A DNA stretch of 33,680 bases from positions 1-33,680 of IMG/VR virus record IMGVR_UViG_2526164670_000016; one strand, written 5' to 3'. The position numbers and the translations under genes were made by a program. The DNA is from a virus. Taxonomy: Duplodnaviria; Heunggongvirae; Uroviricota; Caudoviricetes. Below, in pieces: positions 8,108 through 33,680 of this stretch. The notes below the pieces were generated by a model. The model was not told where the DNA came from, made no database searches, and worked only from the letters and a program-made list of their open reading frames with translations. Each line of letters opens with the position of its first letter. Positions within the stretch are counted from its first letter, which is position 1.

Positions 8108-9278
8108 TCTCCACCGTTAACCCTGACAGGCGCGGGACCGACAGTTCGCTGACAATATCCGTCAGTGAAAAATGCAGTGAATCGACAACCGGAAAAGCTT
8201 TGTGGATCTCGCGGCCCAGATTCGAAAAGGAATAGCGCGAATAGGGCTGCGTCTTCTTAACGTCGTAATTGGCGTTCTCGCGAAACGCGCAACGAATCAG
8301 GTCGGTAATACCGGTTTTTAACGCGCTCAGGTCTTCCGCTTCCATGTTTTCCACGCTTTTGACGTATACCGTTACCGTCAGGGTGTGGCTGGTTTCCGGC
8401 ATGGTATAACACTGCAAATCATCACCGTGTCCGTGGTGGCCCTGGGTATTCACATAGTCGTTAACCGCATCAATAAAGGGTTGTGATATTTCGCCACTGT
8501 CCAGCAACAGGTAAGCATTTGCCGTACCCGGTCCCCGTGGGGCATCGTGCAAAAAGTAAATGCGATCAACGCTCAGGCCCAGCACGCTGGCAATCATGCT
8601 GCGGTAAATAGCGTCAGAGTGATAATTCCCCACCAGATTAAACTGGTTGCGGGTACGGTCGCGCAGCTCGTCGTCGCTTTCCTCGTTGGCTCCCGGCGTA
8701 ATCAGCCATTCGTCCTCATTGACCGCGCTGGCAATCCCGGCCACCGCAACGGGTAAAATCCGGTAATAGCCTGGCGCAAGGTTATAGCCGCTGCCGGTGC
8801 CGGTCGCCGTGACGGTAACCAGCCCGCTTTCAACCCCGGCAGGCAGCGTCACGTCTTCATTCACCGCCAGCACATAAACCACGCCGTTAATGCGCTCGGT
8901 TTGCACCAGTGTTCCGGCAGGCACGACGACCACATCCGCCGCGTTCAGCTTGTAGAACCGCAGCACGCCAGCGGCAGCGCTGGCCGGTTTAGGCACGATA
9001 TGAACCGCCCAGGCCAGCAGGCGCAGCATGGGACCGGTGGCCGTCGCAACAAACATATTGCGCAGGACCACATCGATCATCGCCGCCCGCAGCCATAACA
9101 CCGGCGTGGTGACAATCTTCGAAATCAGCCGCCAGAAAGGCGACATCCTCGACGTGTTTGTAACGAACCCTTCCGCCTGCACGGTGGCTTTAAACGCTGC
9201 CGTAATTTCGGCCTCTGTCGCGGGCATCCCGCTGTCATTCAGTACCTTTTCGAAATCAACGTCGGGTTTCTCAGTCAT
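8094..9278 (-). CDS. Baseplate J-like protein (P2 gpJ / Mu gp47 family), 394 aa
   Basis: Size and position immediately after the small W/gp46-like gene (ATGACTGA start/stop overlap). Confidence 0.65.
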   Translation of the reverse strand: MTEKPDVDFEKVLNDSGMPATEAEITAAFKATVQAEGFVTNTSRMSPFWRLISKIVTTPVLWLRAAMIDVVLRNMFVATATGPMLRLLAWAVHIVPKPASAAAGVLRFYKLNAADVVVVPAGTLVQTERINGVVYVLAVNEDVTLPAGVESGLVTVTATGTGSGYNLAPGYYRILPVAVAGIASAVNEDEWLITPGANEESDDELRDRTRNQFNLVGNYHSDAIYRSMIASVLGLSVDRIYFLHDAPRGPGTANAYLLLDSGEISQPFIDAVNDYVNTQGHHGHGDDLQCYTMPETSHTLTVTVYVKSVENMEAEDLSALKTGITDLIRCAFRENANYDVKKTQPYSRYSFSNLGREIHKAFPVVDSLHFSLTDIVSELSVPRLSGLTVEIEND

Positions 9279-9607
9279 AGTTAACCTCTGTACTGACAGG
9301 GCCGAAATCGTAGGTTTCCGCCGTGATATACAACCTCGAAAGGGTTTCTTCGGTGATCACTATGGTTCCTGGGACCAGACGTTCGTCGCTTTCCACCAGT
9401 AAGGACAGTTGTGTCAGCACGTCACCGCGCATTGTCGGGCTACGTTCACCGATCAGGCGGGTGGTGATACCGCTTTCCAGAATGCTGTGAATAATGTCCT
9501 GGGTGATGCTGTCGCGGTTATCGCAACGGCGCGGCTCGTTGCCCGCTGTCCAGCGTGAAATCGCCGTCAGTGATCAAAAGGTCGATGTATAACGGTTCGG
9601 TACTCAT
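9271..9607 (-). pseudogene. Small baseplate protein gene (gp46/W-like, about 111 aa) interrupted by a 1-nt frameshift
   Basis: ATG at 9607 overlaps the tape-measure stop (ATGA); frame 0 reads MSTEPLYIDLLITDGDFTLDSGQRAAPLR then stops; the +1 frame continues NEPRRCDNRDSITQDIIHSILESGITTRLIGERSP...TEVNYD and ends in a TGA overlapping the J-like ATG. One extra base near the GGGC run (about 9540) explains it. The track shows no ORF of 60 aa or more here. Confidence 0.5.
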
Positions 9608-21454: not shown

Positions 21455-22512
21455 CAAAGAAACAGCGTAAAAATAAAAAATTCGGGTCCATGACCGGCAG
21501 CCGGGTTGAAACCTTCACGCCAGGGCGCGGAAGCGTGATCACATTTGGCGAACCAGAACCCATCCTGACGACCGGCACGGATTATCACAATATCTGGTAT
21601 GACAATGAGTATGACCACTGGCGACTTCCGATTGATCGCCTGGCGCTGGCCCAGTTGCCGAACCTTAACGGCCAGCATGGTGGTGTACTGTATGCGCGGC
21701 GCAATATGGTGGCCGGTGGCTACATCGGCGGCGGCCTGACGCCTGACCAGGTCGAACAGGCTGTCTTTGATTACCTGCTGTTTGGTGACGTTGCTATCCT
21801 GAAAATTCGTAACGTATTCGGGGAAGTGATCGACCTGCTGCCGCTGCCGTCGCTGTATCTTCGCTGCCGAAAAGACGGGTCGTTTGCTGTTTTGCAGGAA
21901 GGGCCAGCACTTATCTATGACCCGGAAGACATCGTCTTTTTTAAAATGTACGACCCGCGCCAGCAGGTGTATGGCCTGCCTGACTATATTGGCGGCATCC
22001 ATTCGGTGTTACTCAACAGTGAGGCAACCATCTTCCGACGCCGTTACTACAACAACGGGGCGCACATGGGCTTTATTCTCTATACCAGCGATCCGAATCT
22101 TACTCTGGAAATGGAAAACGAAATCAAAGAGAAGATCGCCCAGTCCAAAGGGCTGGGTAACTTCCGAAATATGTTTATCAACATCCCGAAGGGCGACCCG
22201 GAAGGGGTTAAAATCCTGCCGGTGGGCGAAGTCAGCGCAAAGGACGAATTTGCCAACATCAAAGGGATCACCGCACAGGATATCTTTACCGCTCACCGTT
22301 TCCCCGCTGGCCTGGCGGGTATCATCCCGACCAACGGCGCGGTAATGGGCAACCCTGAAACCGCCCGCACAACCTATCGCAAGGATGAAGTTATCCCCTT
22401 GCAGCGCAAGCTAATGAACGGCGTCAACAATGACCCGGAGATCCCCGCACACTTGCACCTGGTTTTTGACGTGGATATCCCGGCAATTACCACCGAAAAG
22501 GGCGAAAAATGA
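21451..22512 (+). CDS. Q: Portal protein (P2 gpQ family), 353 aa
   Basis: Size and position after the large terminase gene, with translational coupling. Confidence 0.85.
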   Translation: MTKKQRKNKKFGSMTGSRVETFTPGRGSVITFGEPEPILTTGTDYHNIWYDNEYDHWRLPIDRLALAQLPNLNGQHGGVLYARRNMVAGGYIGGGLTPDQVEQAVFDYLLFGDVAILKIRNVFGEVIDLLPLPSLYLRCRKDGSFAVLQEGPALIYDPEDIVFFKMYDPRQQVYGLPDYIGGIHSVLLNSEATIFRRRYYNNGAHMGFILYTSDPNLTLEMENEIKEKIAQSKGLGNFRNMFINIPKGDPEGVKILPVGEVSAKDEFANIKGITAQDIFTAHRFPAGLAGIIPTNGAVMGNPETARTTYRKDEVIPLQRKLMNGVNNDPEIPAHLHLVFDVDIPAITTEKGEK

Positions 22513-22568
22513 ACGCAGTTAAGTTAAAATCATCCCCACTGTTAGCAATGGCGTGCGGGATGGTGAAC

Positions 22569-22835
22569 ATGCGAGTTTTTAAAATTAAATGTCCTGAATG
22601 CGGCTCACCGGCCATCATTCGTAAATCTGACTGGAAAGACAAAAAACTGGCTGATTTATACTGCGCCTGCACGGAAGTTGAATGCGGCCACACCTTTGTT
22701 TTTAACGCCCAGTTTTCACATACCCTCAGCCCCAGCGGGCTGACCGGCAACAAGCTGGTTAAATTCCTGATTGACCGACTCAAGCCGGAAGAACGGCAAT
22801 TCGCGCTGGACCTGCTCAACGGCCAGACGGCATAA
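22569..22835 (+). CDS. ogr: Ogr/Delta-family zinc-finger late-gene transcriptional activator, 88 aa
   Basis: MRVFKIKCPECGSPAIIRK...YCACTEVECGH gives a C-x2-C-x22-C-x4-C motif as in P2 Ogr; ATG at 22569 with GGGATGG upstream (track ORF starts earlier at 22509). Confidence 0.75.
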   Translation: MRVFKIKCPECGSPAIIRKSDWKDKKLADLYCACTEVECGHTFVFNAQFSHTLSPSGLTGNKLVKFLIDRLKPEERQFALDLLNGQTA

Positions 22836-22837
22836 AC

Positions 22838-22869
22838 GAAGCCCGCATAAAGCGGGCTTCTTTTCATTT
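22838..22869 (+). terminator. Rho-independent terminator after ogr
   Basis: GAAGCCCGC-ATAAA-GCGGGCTTC hairpin followed by TTTTCATTT, starting 3 nt after the ogr stop. Confidence 0.65.
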
Positions 22870-22943
22870 AGAGTGATGTAATGTTATCCGCTATTTTGTT
22901 ACATTCATGGTGGATTTTGCCCTAATATCTGAGGAAAGAAGAT

Positions 22944-24299
22944 ATGCGAATGACCGCTCCAACCAAATCCTTTACTGATGGATTTTGTGAGAATGATGAT
23001 ATTTTTGAAAGAAAAAAACTCCACGATATCATTATGCGGGTTGCCACTAACGCCCCTGATAAAAGTTTAGTTTTAGCATTAGATGATAAATGGGGTAATG
23101 GGAAAACTTCATTTGTAAAAATGATGGAGTCAGAGATAAACAAAAACCACTCCGACGATTTCGAAGTCATCTATTTTGATGCTTTTAAAAGTGATTATCA
23201 GTCTGATCCATTTGTGGCATTAACTTCTAGCATATATTCTCTTATAAACAAAAGTGATGGAAAGTTAAAAACGCTATGTAAGGAACTGTTAGACATTGGA
23301 AAAAAACTTGGTGCCTCATTTGCTATAAATGGTGCGAAGTTTGCAATCAGTACACTTTCAGGTGGGTTACTATCTGGAACCGTTTTTGATAAGGCTACAG
23401 ACACAATAACTGACTCTATCTCTTCGCCCGTAGAGGAATATATAGAAAGCAAAATAAAAAATAGTGAAAGTGAAATCGCGATTATTGAGCGGTTTGGTGA
23501 TTTATTAACTAAAATTTGTGAACAAAGTGGTAAGAAAATATTTTTTATAATCGATGAGCTTGATCGTGCCCGCCCTGACTTTTCATTAGACTTATTAGAG
23601 AAAATAAAACATATATTTTCGGTTAAAGGTGTTATTTTCCTGTTGGTTGTTAATCGTGAACAATTTGAAAAAAGCATTGAATGTCGATATGGCAATATTA
23701 ACGCAAGGCTGTACCTTAATAAATTTGTCCATTACTGGTTTAGTCTTCCGAAGAGAAGCTATCTTTCTGAGGATTGTTTAAATAGATTTAAGCACTCCAC
23801 TATAAAACAATACCTTCTCACTATAGATAATGGTAATAATTTCTTCGTTCGCAATGGCTCCCTTGTAAATACGCTGGCGTATTTGTTAGAAGTCAATGGT
23901 TGTTCACTACGAGAGGCTGAGCGTTGTTACTCTGTGTTTGCAGTTATTGCAAATCCGAATAAAATAAACGAGTACAGTACCGATGCTTATAAAGTTGCAA
24001 TGGGACTAGTTGCATTTCTGAAAGTTCATAACCCTCAAATTCTATCTGATATCATATATAAGCGATATGAATTAAAAGAAATTCTACCAAAGCTATCAAT
24101 CAAAAGAGAACATTTAGAATATATCTCGGAGGTCTACTTACTTGATCACTTACTACAGTACCACTACAAATCAGATGAAGAATTAAAAAACCCTGAGAAC
24201 CAAAATCAATTTTCTGACTTACAAGGTTATTTTGGTCGAAGAGCCCCTGTTTTAGAAATGATGTTTGAAACAGTTGAAGGGTTTAATATTAGTTATTAA
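22944..24299 (+). CDS. KAP-family P-loop NTPase (PifA-like), 451 aa; candidate phage-exclusion protein
   Basis: Walker A WGNGKTS (aa 50-56) and Walker B IFFIIDELDRARPD (about aa 200) in the KAP style, with a hydrophobic insert between them (ASFAINGAKFAISTLSGGLLSGTVF); low-GC gene with its own RBS (GAGGAAAG) in the cargo island. Confidence 0.6.
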   Translation: MRMTAPTKSFTDGFCENDDIFERKKLHDIIMRVATNAPDKSLVLALDDKWGNGKTSFVKMMESEINKNHSDDFEVIYFDAFKSDYQSDPFVALTSSIYSLINKSDGKLKTLCKELLDIGKKLGASFAINGAKFAISTLSGGLLSGTVFDKATDTITDSISSPVEEYIESKIKNSESEIAIIERFGDLLTKICEQSGKKIFFIIDELDRARPDFSLDLLEKIKHIFSVKGVIFLLVVNREQFEKSIECRYGNINARLYLNKFVHYWFSLPKRSYLSEDCLNRFKHSTIKQYLLTIDNGNNFFVRNGSLVNTLAYLLEVNGCSLREAERCYSVFAVIANPNKINEYSTDAYKVAMGLVAFLKVHNPQILSDIIYKRYELKEILPKLSIKREHLEYISEVYLLDHLLQYHYKSDEELKNPENQNQFSDLQGYFGRRAPVLEMMFETVEGFNISY

Positions 24300-24346
24300 A
24301 CCGTAAAAACATTATTTGCAGGCTCTTTGCCGCCCGCACCCGCAGA

Positions 24347-24389
24347 ATCCTGCAGGCCGACGCAAACAGTTGCGACGTCCTGCAGGATT
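24347..24389. repeat. GC-rich inverted repeat (AATCCTGCAGG ... CCTGCAGGATT with a partly palindromic 22-nt centre)
   Basis: Perfect 11-bp arms at 24347-24357 and 24379-24389 between the convergent KAP gene and the 24394-25104 ORF. Confidence 0.5.
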
Positions 24390-24393
24390 GCAT

Positions 24394-25050
24394 TCATTCT
24401 TTTGGGGGGCGACCTTCTGCACCCGCCAGCATTTTTTGATACTCCCCGACCGGATCAAACCGCAGACGCGTGGCATCTATGCCGTGGTTTTCCCGCAGAC
24501 GTTCCCATAATTTATTCACCATCCGTGACTCGTCGGGTAATTGACGCGTTATCAACTGGCCGCCAGCACTGGCCCGATAAACTTTTCCGCCAATCTCCAG
24601 ACGGCTCCCCATTAACAGCGAAACGGCCTGAATCTCTGAAATCTCAACCGAACACAACACCGCATCTGCCAGCAGACTGGCAACCGCAGGGGCAAGCGCT
24701 GCCTGCCTAGCTTTTTCAGCCTCCGATCTGGCCTCGGTTTTTTCAACGGCAGAACGCCAGGCGACATCTAATTCGCTTCCTGGCTCATAAGGTGATCCGC
24801 TTTGCCGCCTTTTGAATGGTGTTTCACGTAGTCGCCGCATCAATTTGCGCCGCGTTGGCTGGTCCATATCTTCAAAATCGACGATTTCATCGTCTGAATC
24901 TTCTGTCGTTAACTCTCCGTCAGCTGGCACAGCCATTTCTGACATTGAAAAATCGGTGATTTTTTCGTCTTCCGTAGAGTTATTGACAGAACTCGAACTC
25001 AAACACTCTGTACATTTTTGTGCAGTATAAAAAGTCTTCATGTTGATCAT
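24394..25050 (-). CDS. Hypothetical protein, acidic N-terminal region; start uncertain (ATG at 25050 or 25041; track ORF starts at a GTG at 25104)
   Basis: Single open frame across a GC-rich segment that contrasts with the AT-rich flanking cargo genes; no strong RBS; no family recognised. Confidence 0.3.
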   Translation of the reverse strand: MINMKTFYTAQKCTECLSSSSVNNSTEDEKITDFSMSEMAVPADGELTTEDSDDEIVDFEDMDQPTRRKLMRRLRETPFKRRQSGSPYEPGSELDVAWRSAVEKTEARSEAEKARQAALAPAVASLLADAVLCSVEISEIQAVSLLMGSRLEIGGKVYRASAGGQLITRQLPDESRMVNKLWERLRENHGIDATRLRFDPVGEYQKMLAGAEGRPPKE

Positions 25051-25118
25051 CAGTGCATAGACTTTTATGATTAGTTCAAAATGGCATTGTGCAGTATGCT
25101 CCACAACGGGTGAGACTT

Positions 25119-25682
25119 ATGAACATTCAAACCGAGACAATTTTTAGCATTGGGCATGGTGCTCGCAGGCTAGAAGAATTTATAGCTTTGTTGAAAAAAT
25201 ATCATATCAGATATGTTATAGACGTTCGTTCAAAACCCAGATCTAGGTTTCACCCACATTTTAATCGTGAAGCTTTGACTCTTCATTTGAAAGAAGCAGG
25301 CATTCGATACGTATTCATGGGAGAACAATTAGGTGGTATTCCTAAAGATGATCAATGTTACGATGAAGACGGACGGGTTGATTACGAAAAAATAAAAAAC
25401 AAAGCTTTTTTCCATGAGGGAATTGAGAGAATAAAAACGGCTCATTCAAAAAATTTAAAAATTGCATGTATGTGTAGCGAGCTATCCCCTTGCGATTGCC
25501 ATAGAAGTAAATTAATTGGTGATTACTTGCAATCACTCGGGATAGAAATGCAGCATATAGATAAGAAAGGAGATATTAGTTCACAAAATGACGTAATGAA
25601 GGAAGTGCTCGGCTCAAACGGTGAATTGGACCTATTTTCGGACAACACCAAAAAATTAAAATCAAGAAAATCGTATCGTTGA
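25119..25682 (+). CDS. DUF488-like protein, 187 aa
   Basis: N-terminal IFSIGHGARRLEEFIALLKK...VIDVRSKPRSRFHPHFNRE and later CMCSE..PCDCHR match what I recall as the DUF488 signature; ATG at 25119 with GGTGAG upstream (track ORF starts at a GTG at 25089); low GC. Confidence 0.55.
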   Translation: MNIQTETIFSIGHGARRLEEFIALLKKYHIRYVIDVRSKPRSRFHPHFNREALTLHLKEAGIRYVFMGEQLGGIPKDDQCYDEDGRVDYEKIKNKAFFHEGIERIKTAHSKNLKIACMCSELSPCDCHRSKLIGDYLQSLGIEMQHIDKKGDISSQNDVMKEVLGSNGELDLFSDNTKKLKSRKSYR

Positions 25683-25697
25683 ATAAAGGGTATTGAG

Positions 25698-26309
25698 ATG
25701 AATACTGATGTAATAATTCTTTCCAGAACAAAAATGTCTGGAGATAAAATTTGCGTAGGTGGATTAGATCTTAATAGTGGGAAGATGTTAAGATTATTGG
25801 ATAATAGAGCAAGTGCTTTGACTTCAGCTTATCCATATAGTATTGGCGAAACATACTCAATAGAGTTTGCTGAAAGGTATCAAGTAGCAGCCCCACATGT
25901 TGAAGATGTAGCTGTTTATGACTACAGCTTAGCGAAAAGTTTTAATAAAGTAGATCTAGATACTATCGTCCATAAACACTCTGGTACATATAACAATCTT
26001 AGTGAACTCTTCTCTGGAAAACTTCACTGGCAAAACTCCAAGGGATATGCTTTGGAGTCAGACCCTCCGGAATTTAGCGTTCAAATAGCAAAAATTAATA
26101 AAATCCTAGTTAGAAATGGAACTGACTTTCAAGAGTTCGGCTCACTCAATCCGCGCAAAGTTAAATATGTTGGCGAACTTGATATAAATAGACTCCCTAG
26201 TAGAATAAATCCTGGCACACCTATTAGATTTTCTTTAGCTCGACCTTGGGATAAGGATAATAATGGTATTAAAGTGTGTTATTTACAACTATCTGGAGTT
26301 TACATTTAA
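25698..26309 (+). CDS. Hypothetical protein, 203 aa, co-operonic partner of the DUF488-like gene
   Basis: ATG 15 bp after the DUF488 stop with AAAGGG..GAG upstream; AT-rich; no family recognised. Confidence 0.5.
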   Translation: MNTDVIILSRTKMSGDKICVGGLDLNSGKMLRLLDNRASALTSAYPYSIGETYSIEFAERYQVAAPHVEDVAVYDYSLAKSFNKVDLDTIVHKHSGTYNNLSELFSGKLHWQNSKGYALESDPPEFSVQIAKINKILVRNGTDFQEFGSLNPRKVKYVGELDINRLPSRINPGTPIRFSLARPWDKDNNGIKVCYLQLSGVYI

Positions 26310-26428: not shown

Positions 26429-28927
26429 TTACTCTATCGCCTTTCTCCAGCGACTGAGCAACTCATCAACTCTATGCCTTGCCAGCGTTTTACGCCAGTT
26501 CATATCCGCACCGGTCACAATCAACTCCCCTGTAATTTGGTTGGCACGGTAAGTAGTATCAAGCGCAGTCACTTCTCTCCCTTGTACCAGCTTTAGCACT
26601 TGCACAGGTGTGATTTGGATCTTTCTTAACTTCGCCCAATCCAGTACCTGAGCAACTAGGGCTGTAACGTTCTTATCTACTACGCTTTCTTCCTGGCGGA
26701 GCGCATACGCGGCTTTTAAATAGCTTTCCGCTCTAGCTCGGTTATATTCGGTGCACTCACCCACAGTGATACTGTACGCAAGTGACTCAAACTCATCTGC
26801 TGCTGAAACACGCTGCGTTTGTTTGTGGATTTTCAGGCCTTCAGCAATCTCTTTTTTCTGTTCCCACCTTAATTTGCCGATTTCAAATTGCTCTGGAGAT
26901 TCATCCCTAGTCGGCAAAGTCAGATCTGGCCGATAAACAACCTGGCAATCTGTTTGTTTTTTGTACTCAGTACAGTTATTGACACGAGTCCTAGAGGGCG
27001 CAGACGCGCCCTTAAGGTCAACAGCAAGGTCAACGGCCTTGCCTGAATCGTTAATAATCTCCGGTTTCTTACGCACAATCCGATAAGAATGTAGGCGGGT
27101 TTCAACTGGCGGCATGAAGATGTGAGGCATCACCAGTCCTTTAATTAAGGTCTGGTATTCACCGTGATCGTTTGGCTGGTCTTTTTGTTGATACCAGATG
27201 CGCAGTGGCAGATCACAACGGGCAACCAACGCCCCACCCTGCAATTGGGTGTATTGCTGCCAGTCGCCAGCATCCGCTGCACGGTGCAGCTCGGCAAACA
27301 ACGGGTTAATCTGGTCTGCCTTTTCCTGATTGCGGAATCGACGTAGCTCGCGCCAGACTGAAACAGGCGCACCACCAAGGAACTGGAATTGACGAATACC
27401 CCAGCATGATGCCCAGGCCGTCGCATGTTTTGAGGTTTCTTTTAATGGTCTGCCGTTCTCGTCATCTGTTTCACCGTCGAGCGCGTAACCATCAATATTC
27501 TTGCTGATATACTTCACCACATAACCGGTGGCGCTTCCGATTTCATGATCGATAGGCTTCATTTCGAAACGTGGACGAATGCCATGCTTACCCTGCAATT
27601 CGTCCTCATCCTCGCGGGTGGCGTAGTCCTTCATCACTTCCAACAATTCAGCTGAATGTTCTGGTAAGGAAAACAGAAGACCATGCCAGTGTGGCGTTCC
27701 GTCGTGGTGAGATTCAGCCACGCGAAGCCCAAACACCTGAATATCGCGGCGGGCCAACTCAGCGCGGATCTGTTGCCAGACTCGATTAAGATAACGTTGC
27801 GTGGTTCTTGGACTGGCCCCGTTCCATTTGCCATTACGATGACCGAAGACGGTATAGGCATGATATTTGGAAGGTGCTGTCATGGTGAAAAACTGCCCTG
27901 CATAGCCACTTTCGGTAGCGACTTTCTCGAAGCCACCGATGCGAGTCATAAGCTCAACGCGGCGCAAAGCTGGGTTAGATATGCTCTTATCTATTTGCTC
28001 AATGAGTGAAATGCGTTCTTTGGTTTCCTGATCTTCCAGCTCAAGCCTGGCCATAATCGCCCGGCTGCGTTTCCGCCTAGTGTCCCACTCTTCAACATGA
28101 TGCTTACTGCAATATGGCGCAGCGCCTCGCTTCACATCACCAAAAGCGATGTGCAGATGTTCACGCCAGCGCGTGCCGTACTTTTTAAGATTTCGGTGCC
28201 AGTAGCGATCATCCAGCATCTTGCTGATACCGGTCGTCGCCTCATCAATAAACAATTTACCCCGGCAATACTTTTCCCAGTTCGGTGGCGTTAGAAAGAA
28301 AAGACGCGCAAGTTGTGCCGCCTCGGTGTAAAGGTATTCGGCATACCGGCGATCACTTTGCGTCTCTACCGTTTCGTGTACCTCGCTCAGCACCGACCGC
28401 ATATAGATCGCAATATCCTGCGCTAATAGTTCAACATCTTCCGGCGTGTAGTCCGGCAGCCTGTTGAATCTCTCAACTAAACCGTTAAGGGTATCAAATA
28501 CATGGTAAAGCGGGTTTAACTTTTTGAATGCTGTTTCAGCTTGTGATTTTGCGTCTTCGGTCATCGCAATTGCGTATTGAGCATTCACCATATTGATGGG
28601 CGGCAGCTCTCTGCGGATGATGTCTCTTACTGCCTGACGGGCAATATGTCGGCCCTTCATCGTGTGAATACTGTCAATGCGAGAAGCCAAGCGCAGGCGT
28701 ATAAAGCGAGGAAGTCTCGAAAGGGTAAGTTTCACCCACGACAAAAACTCTTGTTCTTGACCCAATTCGAATAGATCAACAACAGGAGTCTTATCAACAT
28801 AAATAGCTGCATTAGGCTTTTGCCACTCGTAATCGTAATTGATATCAGCAGCAGAATTAGACATACCCCTGCCGCCAACTAACTGGCGGCGATTGTTACT
28901 CGGCCGAACAAACGCGGAGTCTGTCAC
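26429..28927 (-). CDS. A: Replication initiation endonuclease (P2 gpA-like rolling-circle initiator), 832 aa from the GTG at 28927
   Basis: HUH motif (DGTPHWHGLLF) and catalytic tyrosine motif (GYVVKYISKNIDGYALDG) as I recall from P2 gpA; GTGA overlap with the Dam stop, alternative ATG at 28864. Confidence 0.85.
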   Translation of the reverse strand: MTDSAFVRPSNNRRQLVGGRGMSNSAADINYDYEWQKPNAAIYVDKTPVVDLFELGQEQEFLSWVKLTLSRLPRFIRLRLASRIDSIHTMKGRHIARQAVRDIIRRELPPINMVNAQYAIAMTEDAKSQAETAFKKLNPLYHVFDTLNGLVERFNRLPDYTPEDVELLAQDIAIYMRSVLSEVHETVETQSDRRYAEYLYTEAAQLARLFFLTPPNWEKYCRGKLFIDEATTGISKMLDDRYWHRNLKKYGTRWREHLHIAFGDVKRGAAPYCSKHHVEEWDTRRKRSRAIMARLELEDQETKERISLIEQIDKSISNPALRRVELMTRIGGFEKVATESGYAGQFFTMTAPSKYHAYTVFGHRNGKWNGASPRTTQRYLNRVWQQIRAELARRDIQVFGLRVAESHHDGTPHWHGLLFSLPEHSAELLEVMKDYATREDEDELQGKHGIRPRFEMKPIDHEIGSATGYVVKYISKNIDGYALDGETDDENGRPLKETSKHATAWASCWGIRQFQFLGGAPVSVWRELRRFRNQEKADQINPLFAELHRAADAGDWQQYTQLQGGALVARCDLPLRIWYQQKDQPNDHGEYQTLIKGLVMPHIFMPPVETRLHSYRIVRKKPEIINDSGKAVDLAVDLKGASAPSRTRVNNCTEYKKQTDCQVVYRPDLTLPTRDESPEQFEIGKLRWEQKKEIAEGLKIHKQTQRVSAADEFESLAYSITVGECTEYNRARAESYLKAAYALRQEESVVDKNVTALVAQVLDWAKLRKIQITPVQVLKLVQGREVTALDTTYRANQITGELIVTGADMNWRKTLARHRVDELLSRWRKAIE

Positions 28928-29910
28928 CGCTCAGACTCCACGCCACATGTCGCAGCCGTTGCCAGCATTTCGTTATAGGTCGCGTTACCCATTACAGGGC
29001 CACAATCAGGGCAACCACCACCACCGGCACGACCACAGCCGCTACACAATTTGAGGACGCCGATCACTTCACTGGCGGCCCCTCGGGTAATGGCGTTCGC
29101 GCTAACAGAACGGTTAACGCTGATTTCCTGGAAGTTGAAACAGCGATAAATCTCGCGGGTGACTGGGGTGTCGCTATTGGACAGGATCACCGGCGAACCA
29201 GTAAGGCGGTTAATATCCAGCAGGACGGCAGCTAACTGGCGATGTTCTTTAATGCCAAACGGGGCTGTGTGATATTGGGTGAAATTAGCTGTTTCGCTTG
29301 TTGGCAGGTATGGCGGATCGCAGTAGATAACCGCGTCACTACCAATCATGATTTTTAACGTGCTCTGGAAATCGCAGCACACGAAAATGGCTTTCGTGTC
29401 GTTAGCTTTTTCAGAGAATAAACGGATCTGTTCTTCCGGGAAGTAAGGCGGGGTTTTGTGACGCCCAAAGGGAACGTTATATCCACCCTGTTGGTTGTAG
29501 CGTACTACGCCGTTATATCCGTGACGGTTCAGGTAAAGAAATTGTGCTGCACGAAGAATCTTGCCCGCGTCCGGCCCATCTTCAAACACACTGCGCAATG
29601 ACAGTAGGTCACGTGCGCGGGCGTTGAAATCATCGCGGATCCATTTATAGCCGTCTTTATCGCCGTACACTTTAAACAGTGGGCGAGCAGCGTCGATCAC
29701 CGCATCAGGCCAGCGGGTTATCTGGCGATACAGGTTAATTAAATCTGGGTTGATATCACCCAGGATATAACGGCGATATTCAGTATTGAGGAAAACAGAA
29801 GCACCGCCGACAAACGGTTCCACCAGGCAATCGGCTTTCGGCAGAATCGGCAGCAAATCAGGCATAACGCGGCCTTTACCACCGGGCCATTTAACGAGAG
29901 ATCGAATCAT
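28924..29910 (-). CDS. DNA adenine methyltransferase, Dam-like, with a Cys-rich C-terminal extension, 328 aa
   Basis: WPGGKGRV...EPFVGGASVF (SAM-binding) and IYCDPPY (catalytic DPPY) closely resemble E. coli Dam from memory; extra tail CSGCGRAGGGGCPDCGP; GGAG RBS before the ATG at 29910. Confidence 0.85.
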   Translation of the reverse strand: MIRSLVKWPGGKGRVMPDLLPILPKADCLVEPFVGGASVFLNTEYRRYILGDINPDLINLYRQITRWPDAVIDAARPLFKVYGDKDGYKWIRDDFNARARDLLSLRSVFEDGPDAGKILRAAQFLYLNRHGYNGVVRYNQQGGYNVPFGRHKTPPYFPEEQIRLFSEKANDTKAIFVCCDFQSTLKIMIGSDAVIYCDPPYLPTSETANFTQYHTAPFGIKEHRQLAAVLLDINRLTGSPVILSNSDTPVTREIYRCFNFQEISVNRSVSANAITRGAASEVIGVLKLCSGCGRAGGGGCPDCGPVMGNATYNEMLATAATCGVESER

Positions 29911-31599: not shown

Positions 31600-31875
31600 T
31601 TATGATGGATTGCCCAGACCCAACCACATTAACCACCCTTCCCTAATTTCCTTCGGGCGGCTCTCATACGCCATTTTCATGCCGTTGTTCCAGGCTGGAA
31701 GATAGACCCAGTACTCACCTGCCCGCCCGGAAGTTGATTGCGGATCGGTCATTTCAACTACAGGTAGCTTTCCTTTTTCAATCATCCCCTTCACCGCTGC
31801 CGGTGTTTTACCAATGAGTTTTGCGAACTCCTGATATGGGACGGCATCTGTGCTTAACGCGATCTGTTTAACCAT
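31600..31875 (-). CDS. cox: Cox (P2-type excisionase and transcriptional regulator), 91 aa
   Basis: Near-identical by memory to P2 Cox (...DAVPYQEFAKLIGK...GKLPVVEMTDPQSTSGRAGEYWVYLPAWNNG...AYESRPKEIREGWLMWLGLG); divergent from C. Confidence 0.85.
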   Translation of the reverse strand: MVKQIALSTDAVPYQEFAKLIGKTPAAVKGMIEKGKLPVVEMTDPQSTSGRAGEYWVYLPAWNNGMKMAYESRPKEIREGWLMWLGLGNPS

Positions 31876-31937
31876 TTAAGGCCCTCACAAGTTTAAGAAT
31901 CGTCACCAATGGCTTATAGTTGCTTTTGATGTTCATT

Positions 31938-31991: not shown

Positions 31992-32291
31992 ATGTCAAAC
32001 GCCTTAAACGAGAAAATTGTACTCATCAGAAAGTCTGAGTATCTCAGCAGACAGCAACTTGCTGATTTAACAGGCATTCCCTATGGCACTTTAAGTTATT
32101 ACGAAAGTGGTCGTTCTACACCGCCCACGGACGTAATGATGAGGATTTTGCAAATGCCCCAGTTCAGCAAATACACGTTGTGGTTTATGACCGATCAGGT
32201 TGCTCCCGAAGCCGGTCAGATAGCACCGGCCCTCGCACACTTTGGGCAAGATGTAACAACATCGCAGCACTCAGACCAAAAGATTGGTTAA
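31992..32291 (+). CDS. C: Immunity repressor C (P2-type), 99 aa
   Basis: Near-identical by memory to P2 C (MSN...EKIVL.RKSEYLSRQQLADLTG.PYGTLSYYESGRSTPPTDVMM); 99 aa as in P2; followed by int. Confidence 0.85.
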   Translation: MSNALNEKIVLIRKSEYLSRQQLADLTGIPYGTLSYYESGRSTPPTDVMMRILQMPQFSKYTLWFMTDQVAPEAGQIAPALAHFGQDVTTSQHSDQKIG

Positions 32292-32436
32292 CCATTCACC
32301 AGGCGCATCTTTATTACAAAATTTGTTTACTTGTTGCCAAATACAACAAGCACAACAAGTTTGTGAAATCTAAGCGCAAGGGAAAATTAACAGCAGCAAA
32401 GAAAACTCAACCTAGCACCATTCATTTGGGGGTCTT

Positions 32437-33221
32437 ATGACAATTAAGAAACTCGATGATGGTCGTTATGAAGTGGATATCAGACCTGCAGGGCGCAACG
32501 GAAAGCGCATCCGCAGGAAATTTGACAAGAAAAGTGAGGCTGTAGCTTTTGAGAAACACACTCAATACAACCATCACGATAAAGAATGGCTAGCTAAACC
32601 GACAGATAAGCGGCATCTGTCTGAATTAACAAAAGTCTGGTGGGATCTGAAAGGCAAGCATGAAGAACACGGAAAATCCAATTTGGGTAAGATTGAAATC
32701 TTTACCCGGATCACTGATGACCCTTGCGCGTTCCAGATAACCAAAGCGCTTATTAGCCAGTACAGCATGACTCGCAGAGGGCAAGGCATAAAACCGGCCA
32801 GTATTAACCGCGACCTTACCTGCCTGAGTGGTATGTTTACTGCGCTAATTGATGCGGAACTGTTTTTTGGCGAACACCCTTTCAGAGGGATGAAAAAGCT
32901 CAAGGAGCAGAAACCAGAAACAGGCTATCTGACGCAGGAAGAAATAACATTGTTACTTGCCAATCTTGACGGGGACAACAAGAAAATCGCGATCCTCTGT
33001 TTAAGTACCGGCGCTCGATGGGGTGAAGCCGCGAAACTGAAAGCTGAGAACGTAATACAGAATCGGGTGACGTTCGTTAAAACAAAGACGAACAAACCGC
33101 GCACAGTCCCTATCTCTGAGGAAGTTGCTGTAATGATTGCGGGTAAAGGTTATCTGTTCCCTGATGCCTCATATCCGAAGTTCAGGCGAACAATGAAAGA
33201 TGTAAAACCAGATCTACCGAG
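32437..33221 (+). pseudogene. int: Tyrosine integrase (P2 Int-like), 3'-truncated by IS insertion; about 261 of an expected ~337 aa retained
   Basis: N-terminal 260 aa strongly resemble P2 Int from memory up to ...KDVKPDLPS; after about 33221 the frame reads unrelated sequence (LYIDLCNCLILICS...) into the IS; the C-terminal catalytic region is absent. Confidence 0.8.
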
Positions 33222-33680
33222 CCTGTACATAGATTTGTGTAATTGCCTGATTTTGATATGTTCAATCCAGCATCAAATGAAGGTTAATTTATGGACGAAA
33301 AACAGTTACAGGCTCTGGCTAACGAACTGGCCAAAAACCTCAAAACCCCTGAAGACCTCAGTCAGTTTGATCGGCTGCTGAAAAAACTCAGCGTTGAAGC
33401 CGCTCTCAATGCTGAGATGACACACCATCTTGGGTATGAGAAAAATCAGTCCAGACCAGGAGCTAACTCCCGCAACGGTTATTCCACAAAGACCGTTATC
33501 ACAGGCGACGGTCCACTGGAACTGCGTACTCCGCGCGATCGTGACGGTACCTTCGAACCGCAACTGGTAAAGAAAAATCAGACCCGTATTACCGGGATGG
33601 ATAACCAGATCCTGTCGTTGTATGCCAAAGGGATGACCACCCGTGAGATAGCTACTGCGTTCAAAGAACTGTATGACGCA
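33221..33680 (+). mobile_element. IS256-family insertion sequence (IS1414/IS285-like), left end and 5' part; continues beyond the window
   Basis: Transposase ORF begins at 33291, about 70 bp inside the inferred left end; the boundary is placed where the integrase homology stops (plus or minus 10 bp). Confidence 0.7.
33291..33680 (+). CDS. IS256-family transposase, N-terminal 130 aa (partial, runs off the window)
   Basis: MDEKQLQALANELAKNLKTPEDLSQFDRLLKKL...NSRNGYSTKTVITGDGPLELRTPRDRDGTFEPQLVKKNQTRITGMDNQILSLYAKGMTTREI is the typical IS256/Mutator-like transposase N-terminus; no stop before the window end. Confidence 0.8.
   Translation, partial: MDEKQLQALANELAKNLKTPEDLSQFDRLLKKLSVEAALNAEMTHHLGYEKNQSRPGANSRNGYSTKTVITGDGPLELRTPRDRDGTFEPQLVKKNQTRITGMDNQILSLYAKGMTTREIATAFKELYDA

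Follow-up and report, generated by a model that had tools for sequence, protein, structure and literature searches.

The window, by which we mean the whole 33,680-nucleotide stretch of DNA that was analysed, holds a Peduoviridae prophage of about 32 kb. The prophage occupies the P2 attachment site, which lies within the terminator of cyaR and has yegQ and yegR as its neighbours. Its structural genes are approximately 96% identical to those of Salmonella phage SI7 (Peduoviridae, Irrigatiovirus), and its int-C-cox module is P2-type. The left end of the prophage and the adjoining chromosome carry the following features.

1–1362, + strand: host yegQ (trhP), the chromosomal flank left of the prophage; matched in 5424 of 5426 complete E. 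coli genomes
1445–1530, + strand: cyaR (ryeE) sRNA gene, with the att core in its 3′ terminator; Rfam RF00112, 100.7 bits (gathering score 47), E = 3.2e-19
1507–1533, + strand: attL core, 27 bp; all 27 positions match the annotated attP core of P2 in reverse complement
1574–1592, + strand: Int arm-binding repeats of the P-arm type, TGTCCACA and TGACCACA; reverse complement of the consensus tgTGGaCa, in a layout that parallels the P arm of P2 attP

The consensus used for the arm sites is a published one (PMC3448106), and the att core is present as a single copy within the window. Integration of the prophage regenerates the terminator of the cyaR sRNA at attL. The opposite end of the window contains the regulatory genes, the 5′ part of the integrase gene and the left part of an insertion sequence.

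31600–31875, − strand: cox (excision directionality factor and Pc repressor), intact; PF10743 Phage_Cox, profile positions 1–87 of 87, E = 5.9e-43
31893–31920 (+ strand) and 31998–31970 (− strand): face-to-face Pc-like and Pe-like promoter sites, which are consensus matches only and no more numerous than in shuffled sequence
31992–32291, + strand: P2-type C immunity repressor, 99 aa, intact; HTH_3 match, full-length and 77% identical to C of the GN06156 prophage
32437–33218, + strand: 5′ part of int, 782 nt (codons 1–261), encoding the arm-binding domain, the core-binding domain and the first part of the catalytic domain
32437–33381, + strand: chimeric ORF of 314 aa, made of 261 Int residues and 53 IS1414-encoded residues; database entries EFW73407.1 / WP_000152890.1, ‘phage integrase’
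33211–33218, + strand: predicted target-site duplication GATCTACC, the 8 bp adjoining the IS end; a second copy would fall beyond the window
33219–33680, + strand: left 462 bp of IS1414 (IS256 family), ended by the end of the contig; 462/462 identical to a complete copy
about 33219–33248, + strand: imperfect left terminal inverted repeat of IS1414, beginning GAGCCTGTACATAG
33291–33680, + strand: IS1414 transposase gene, first 130 of 402 codons; PF00872 Transposase_mut, E = 6.3e-27

The positions of the Pc-like and Pe-like sites parallel the annotation of P2.

The native int sequence stops where IS1414 begins

The int gene starts with an ATG at 32437, and the protein encoded by its first 261 codons is identical (261/261 residues) to an intact 335-aa integrase, WP_000152889.1, whose locus (L001) was our comparison homologue for int. 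Direct comparison with this gene and with a complete copy of IS1414 (L002) places the last native int base at 33218. The G at 33219 is the first base of IS1414 and by coincidence completes codon 261 (CCG, Pro). The element is therefore positioned after nt 782 of the 1008-nt int gene. It has the same orientation as int, and its transposase ATG at 33291 is 72 nt inside it. These measurements bear out the initial annotation, which had described an int frame that stays intact for about 261 codons and then enters unrelated sequence about 70 bp upstream of an IS256-type transposase gene.

Translation of the interrupted gene would continue through 53 IS-encoded codons to a stop at 33379–33381, giving the 314-aa product. 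The deposited ‘phage integrase’ WP_000152890.1 is thus an Int-IS1414 fusion ORF and should carry a flag for a disrupted gene.

The junction appears to be confined to one strain. In a megablast search of 32300–33680 against 5,426 complete E. coli genomes, the int portion had many matches that all ended at query base 920 (33219), and no record spanned the junction. Nor was an exact match to the junction found elsewhere in the genome contig collection. An exact look-up of the 314-aa chimeric protein among approximately 15 billion proteins returned a single contig, AERU01000033.1 (276,939 bp) of assembly GCA_000193995.2. Base 33680 of the window is the last base of this draft contig. Because the contig ends inside IS1414, the window stops short of the right end of the element, a second copy of the predicted duplication, the 3′-terminal 226 nt of int and attR. 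A contig end inside an insertion sequence is expected where a repeat breaks a draft assembly.

Catalytic residues are missing from the truncated integrase

The intact homologue is 86% identical (291/337) to P2 Int (NP_046786.1), and the solved structures that best match the integrase are those of P2 Int (5C6K, 5DOR), followed by HP1 Int. Its assignment as a P2-type integrase, made initially from sequence inspection, is thereby confirmed. The N-terminal profile PF24624 (Int_N; arm-binding and core-binding domains) is complete in the truncated protein (profile positions 1–100 of 100, E = 2.3e-24). In contrast, the Pfam Phage_integrase profile PF00589 is covered only at positions 2–79 of 172, compared with 2–169 in the intact homologue.

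Tyrosine recombinases are defined by a catalytic RKHRH pentad and a tyrosine nucleophile (PMC8138268), and the catalytic site of P2-like integrases resides in the C-terminal domain (PMC3448106). The corresponding motifs of the intact protein are R194 (ARWGE), the lysines at 215, 217 and 220, H267 and R270 (HALRH), H293 (LGH) and Y302 (VYAHF). The truncated Int keeps R194 and the β-hairpin lysines K215, K217 and K220. After P261 the reading frame lacks four of the six catalytic residues (H267, R270, H293 and Y302), which means that the HxxR motif, the second histidine and the tyrosine are gone, as had been predicted for the C-terminal catalytic part. With these residues removed, the truncated Int should be catalytically dead. 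It is a tyrosine recombinase by descent that is presumably inactive, able neither to cleave DNA nor to religate it.

Across its 782 nt, the 5′ part differs from the nearest intact int (that of L001) at 18 nucleotides, and every one of these changes is synonymous. This absence of decay in the 5′ part of int makes a recent event likely, and suggests that int was under purifying selection until recently. Together with the distribution of the junction, we infer that the insertion is both recent and strain-specific.

The interrupting element is IS1414

The element had been assigned to the IS256 family, and both protein and nucleotide matches now name it more specifically as IS1414, an insertion sequence that is common in E. 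coli. The transposase fragment aligns through residues 16–128 with positions 15–128 of the 379 in PF00872, only the N-terminal 130 aa of the protein being available; the full-length transposase of reference IS1414 copies is WP_000343728.1. For the interval 33215–33680, about 4,000 genomes have matches of up to 100% identity, on chromosomes as well as plasmids, at a locus described as ‘IS256-like element IS1414 family transposase’; the L002 copy bears the same description in RefSeq. IS1414 is a member of the IS256 family (McVeigh et al., 2000, as cited in PMC12585946). Intact copies are often present in multiple copies per genome, and the element has the astA/EAST1 ORF embedded in it (PMC12585946). 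In reference copies, the astA (EAST1 enterotoxin) ORF occupies nt 788–904 of the element, and here it would fall beyond the end of the window.

Three complete IS1414 copies (L002, L006 and L007) were used to define the element. Each is 1315 bp long, with the ends GAGCCTGT...ACAGGCTC, and contains both terminal repeats, which match each other at 22 of 30 positions without gaps. Direct duplications of 8 bp, CCCACTCC and TATATTAC, border two of the three (L002 and L007). The third, L006, has no target duplication and abuts another insertion sequence. These ends and duplications establish 33219 as the left boundary of the IS in the window and GATCTACC as the predicted duplication. Chance is not a concern, because the int homology breaks at the exact terminal nucleotide of an element whose ends are defined by 8-bp duplications in other copies.

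Probable simple insertion and its alternatives

The architecture of the locus is best explained if a copy of IS1414 transposed into int of the prophage after nt 782, in the same orientation as int. A simple insertion would duplicate the 8 bp GATCTACC. Beyond the right end of the IS one would then expect a second GATCTACC, followed by GGACGGGCAAGC (the 3′ part of int, 226 nt including the stop codon), the P′ arm repeats (TGTCCACA twice), the core (CCCTTACACGGGCTTATTTTTT) and yegR, all approximately 1.3 kb further out than in an uninterrupted prophage. We consider a simple insertion of IS1414 with displacement of attR by 1,323 bp to be highly probable.

The best-surviving alternative is that the IS1414 copy at int marks one end of an IS-mediated rearrangement, for example a deletion next to the element, or a deletion or inversion that involves two IS1414 copies. 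If this were the case, the 3′ part of int and attR would no longer adjoin the prophage, and the lock on excision would be physical and not only enzymatic. The contig stops inside the IS, as such a rearrangement would allow, and the L006 copy without a duplication demonstrates that IS1414 copies of this kind exist. Furthermore, we predicted the ORFs that a remnant of int should yield from a simulated simple-insertion product, and none of 14 predicted fragment proteins (start variants combined with five C-terminal variants) could be assigned to the source assembly; the only fragment that the look-up recovered, of 58 aa, belongs to a different assembly (GDP54943.1). The missing ORFs say little, however, since short ORFs may go uncalled and the true C-terminus may differ by one residue. 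Moreover, transposition by default yields a simple insertion, and clean 8-bp duplications accompany two of the three reference copies. A rearrangement is thus unlikely.

We also weighed whether the junction might be an assembly artefact, in which a chimeric contig end joins int reads to IS reads. In favour of this are the age and draft status of the source assembly, the repeat at the contig end, and a difference in homopolymer length in the same window that may be a sequencing error. Against it, one would not expect a misjoin to coincide with the very terminal nucleotide of the IS, and int and the IS have just one base in common at the junction, so that an artefact is very improbable. It is hardly tenable that the integrase is full length or functional after all, or that the transposase-like ORF is a native phage gene, findings that the initial annotation had named as refuting its reading. 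Int homology is lost at residue 262, with four of six catalytic residues missing. The downstream DNA is 100% IS1414, an element that occurs in thousands of unrelated settings on chromosomes and plasmids, and neither related prophages nor phage SI7 carry such a gene at this position.

Among Int partials from other assemblies, three of 72–74 aa (P0019, P0023 and P0024) lie at contig edges and start at D262, G263 or Q264, almost precisely where the IS is inserted in this window. As candidates for right-junction contigs they were rejected: they lack the residues DLP that the target-site duplication would encode, and they overlap by approximately 100 nt with the paired 295-aa N-terminal partial P0006. 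They probably represent assembly breaks at a short repeat common to two int paralogues, in which case the match in position would be coincidental.

Attachment sites and excision

Intact relatives of the prophage indicate what should lie beyond a simple insertion. In L001 and in the GN06156 prophage (L008), int is followed by 85 bp, the same core as at attL (22 bp; attR), and then yegR and yegS; in the latter, the 22-bp core forms a direct repeat at both ends of the prophage (L008 positions 432 and 33566). The P′ arm repeats are located in the last 30 nt of int in these relatives. Both the P′ arm repeats and the core are distal to the insertion point, and attR is therefore probably intact. The initial annotation had described the att site on this side as displaced or lost; with a simple insertion, attR would most likely be an otherwise intact site that has moved outwards by about 1.3 kb.

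Excision of P2-type prophages requires Int together with Cox and IHF, acting at attL and attR (PMC3936717; established knowledge and the P2 annotation). The Int product encoded here would retain its arm-binding and core-binding domains, R194 and the β-hairpin lysines, with catalysis lost. Because P2-type excision needs Int with Cox and IHF, and this Int is predicted to be dead, excision by the prophage’s own genes should be impossible. The earlier proposal that the prophage is locked in place is therefore probably right, as judged from its sequence, in that it could no longer excise through its own int. If attR is intact, Int supplied in trans by a related co-resident or superinfecting P2-type phage could still excise it.

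P2-type phages that carry a C repressor are not known to be SOS-inducible. For this reason induction may be uninformative with respect to excision, and overexpression of Cox would be a better trigger.

We considered whether the insertion might have effects beyond the loss of int. The C-int operon of a P2-type lysogen is transcribed from the constitutively active Pc promoter, and IS1414 has the same orientation as this operon. Owing to this co-orientation, read-through from Pc could drive the IS1414 transposase, as well as astA/EAST1 if the copy carries it. In addition, the truncated Int could act as a dominant-negative protein, using the binding domains that it keeps to occupy att sites and so disturb integration or excision of related P2-type phages. 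Such additional effects seem quite doubtful.

State of the remaining prophage genes

The P2-type head, terminase, portal, replication and regulatory genes are full length when compared with SI7 or the GN06156 prophage. Leaving aside the variable modules (tail fibre and assembly protein, the gpA allele and cargo), the exceptions are int and a frameshifted DUF2590 gene. The latter encodes a 111-aa baseplate protein (9274–9607, − strand) and has an extra G/C at 9542–9544 (CCC on the + strand, within the stretch 9538–9548). This extra base (GGG versus GG on the coding strand) causes a +1 frameshift at about codon 22. SI7 does not have it, and in 19 of the 19 relatives among complete genomes the corresponding stretch is shorter by one base. 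The frameshift is possibly a second inactivating lesion or possibly a homopolymer sequencing error. If it is real, the prophage may already be defective, and being locked in place would matter little for phage production.

A cargo hotspot extends from 22509 to 26309, between an ogr/delta-like gene and gpA, and carries three candidate defence genes.

22944–24299: KAP-family NTPase, candidate defence cargo; PADLOC candidate PDC-S20, E = 6.7e-70
25089–25682: DUF488 protein, candidate defence cargo; PDC-M45B, E = 1.4e-54
25698–26309: DuOB-domain protein, candidate defence cargo

At the same hotspot, the GN06156 prophage encodes a 925-aa hypothetical protein instead, and it carries an AbiH gene adjoining attL. 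The gpA replication endonuclease (26429–28927, − strand) is full length and only approximately 34% identical to gpA of SI7 and of the GN06156 prophage. The cargo region also contains a 199-aa remnant of the C-terminus of an SI7-type gpA (24397–24993, − strand; 94% identical). The remnant and the divergent gpA look like the scar of a replication-module replacement. Overlapping the start of gpA is a 328-aa ORF (28924–29910) that encodes a Dam-type methyltransferase (29032–29910, − strand) with a C-terminal extension rich in Cys and Gly; its GN06156 homologue has 296 aa.

Prophages of this type are present in 19 of the 5,426 complete E. coli genomes, and all 19 have an integrase CDS annotated at the int region. 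An intact int of 335 aa is present in both of the relatives that were examined in full (L001 and L008). Among other genomes represented in the same 90%-identity Int cluster, one member is truncated (P0011, 316 aa, Citrobacter braakii) and another is split (P0030, 203 aa, and P0022, 83 aa). Independent truncation or splitting of these cluster members indicates that disruption of int recurs.

Comparison with known systems

The event described here is an ordinary and strain-specific one. IS1414 has already been described, and disruption of the integrase by an insertion sequence is a well-known route to the grounding of prophages. For this strain, the probable consequence is that a prophage of approximately 32 kb with candidate defence cargo (the KAP NTPase and the DUF488/DuOB genes) has become a permanent part of the chromosome, from which Int supplied in trans could still release it. 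The locus also adds one further example of active IS1414 copies grounding prophages.

Knockout of a recombination gene by an insertion sequence in an otherwise largely complete prophage is a standard way in which prophages become grounded, as exemplified by the IS629-hit prophages of E. coli O157 Sakai. Relative to those prophages, both the insertion sequence and the phage lineage differ, and the event reported here is a singleton with no sign of spread.

The interrupting DNA has the same left terminal repeat, 72-nt leader and transposase N-terminus as IS1414, and its 462 bp are identical to complete 1315-bp copies; only the left third of the element is visible in the window.

The prophage resembles P2 in its arm-site repeats, its 27-bp att core and its int-C-cox order with face-to-face promoter-like sites. 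In contrast, the rest of the prophage is not P2: the structural genes are SI7-like, and gpA is a divergent allele. The Int copy in this prophage stops at residue 261 and is extended by 53 residues encoded by the insertion sequence.
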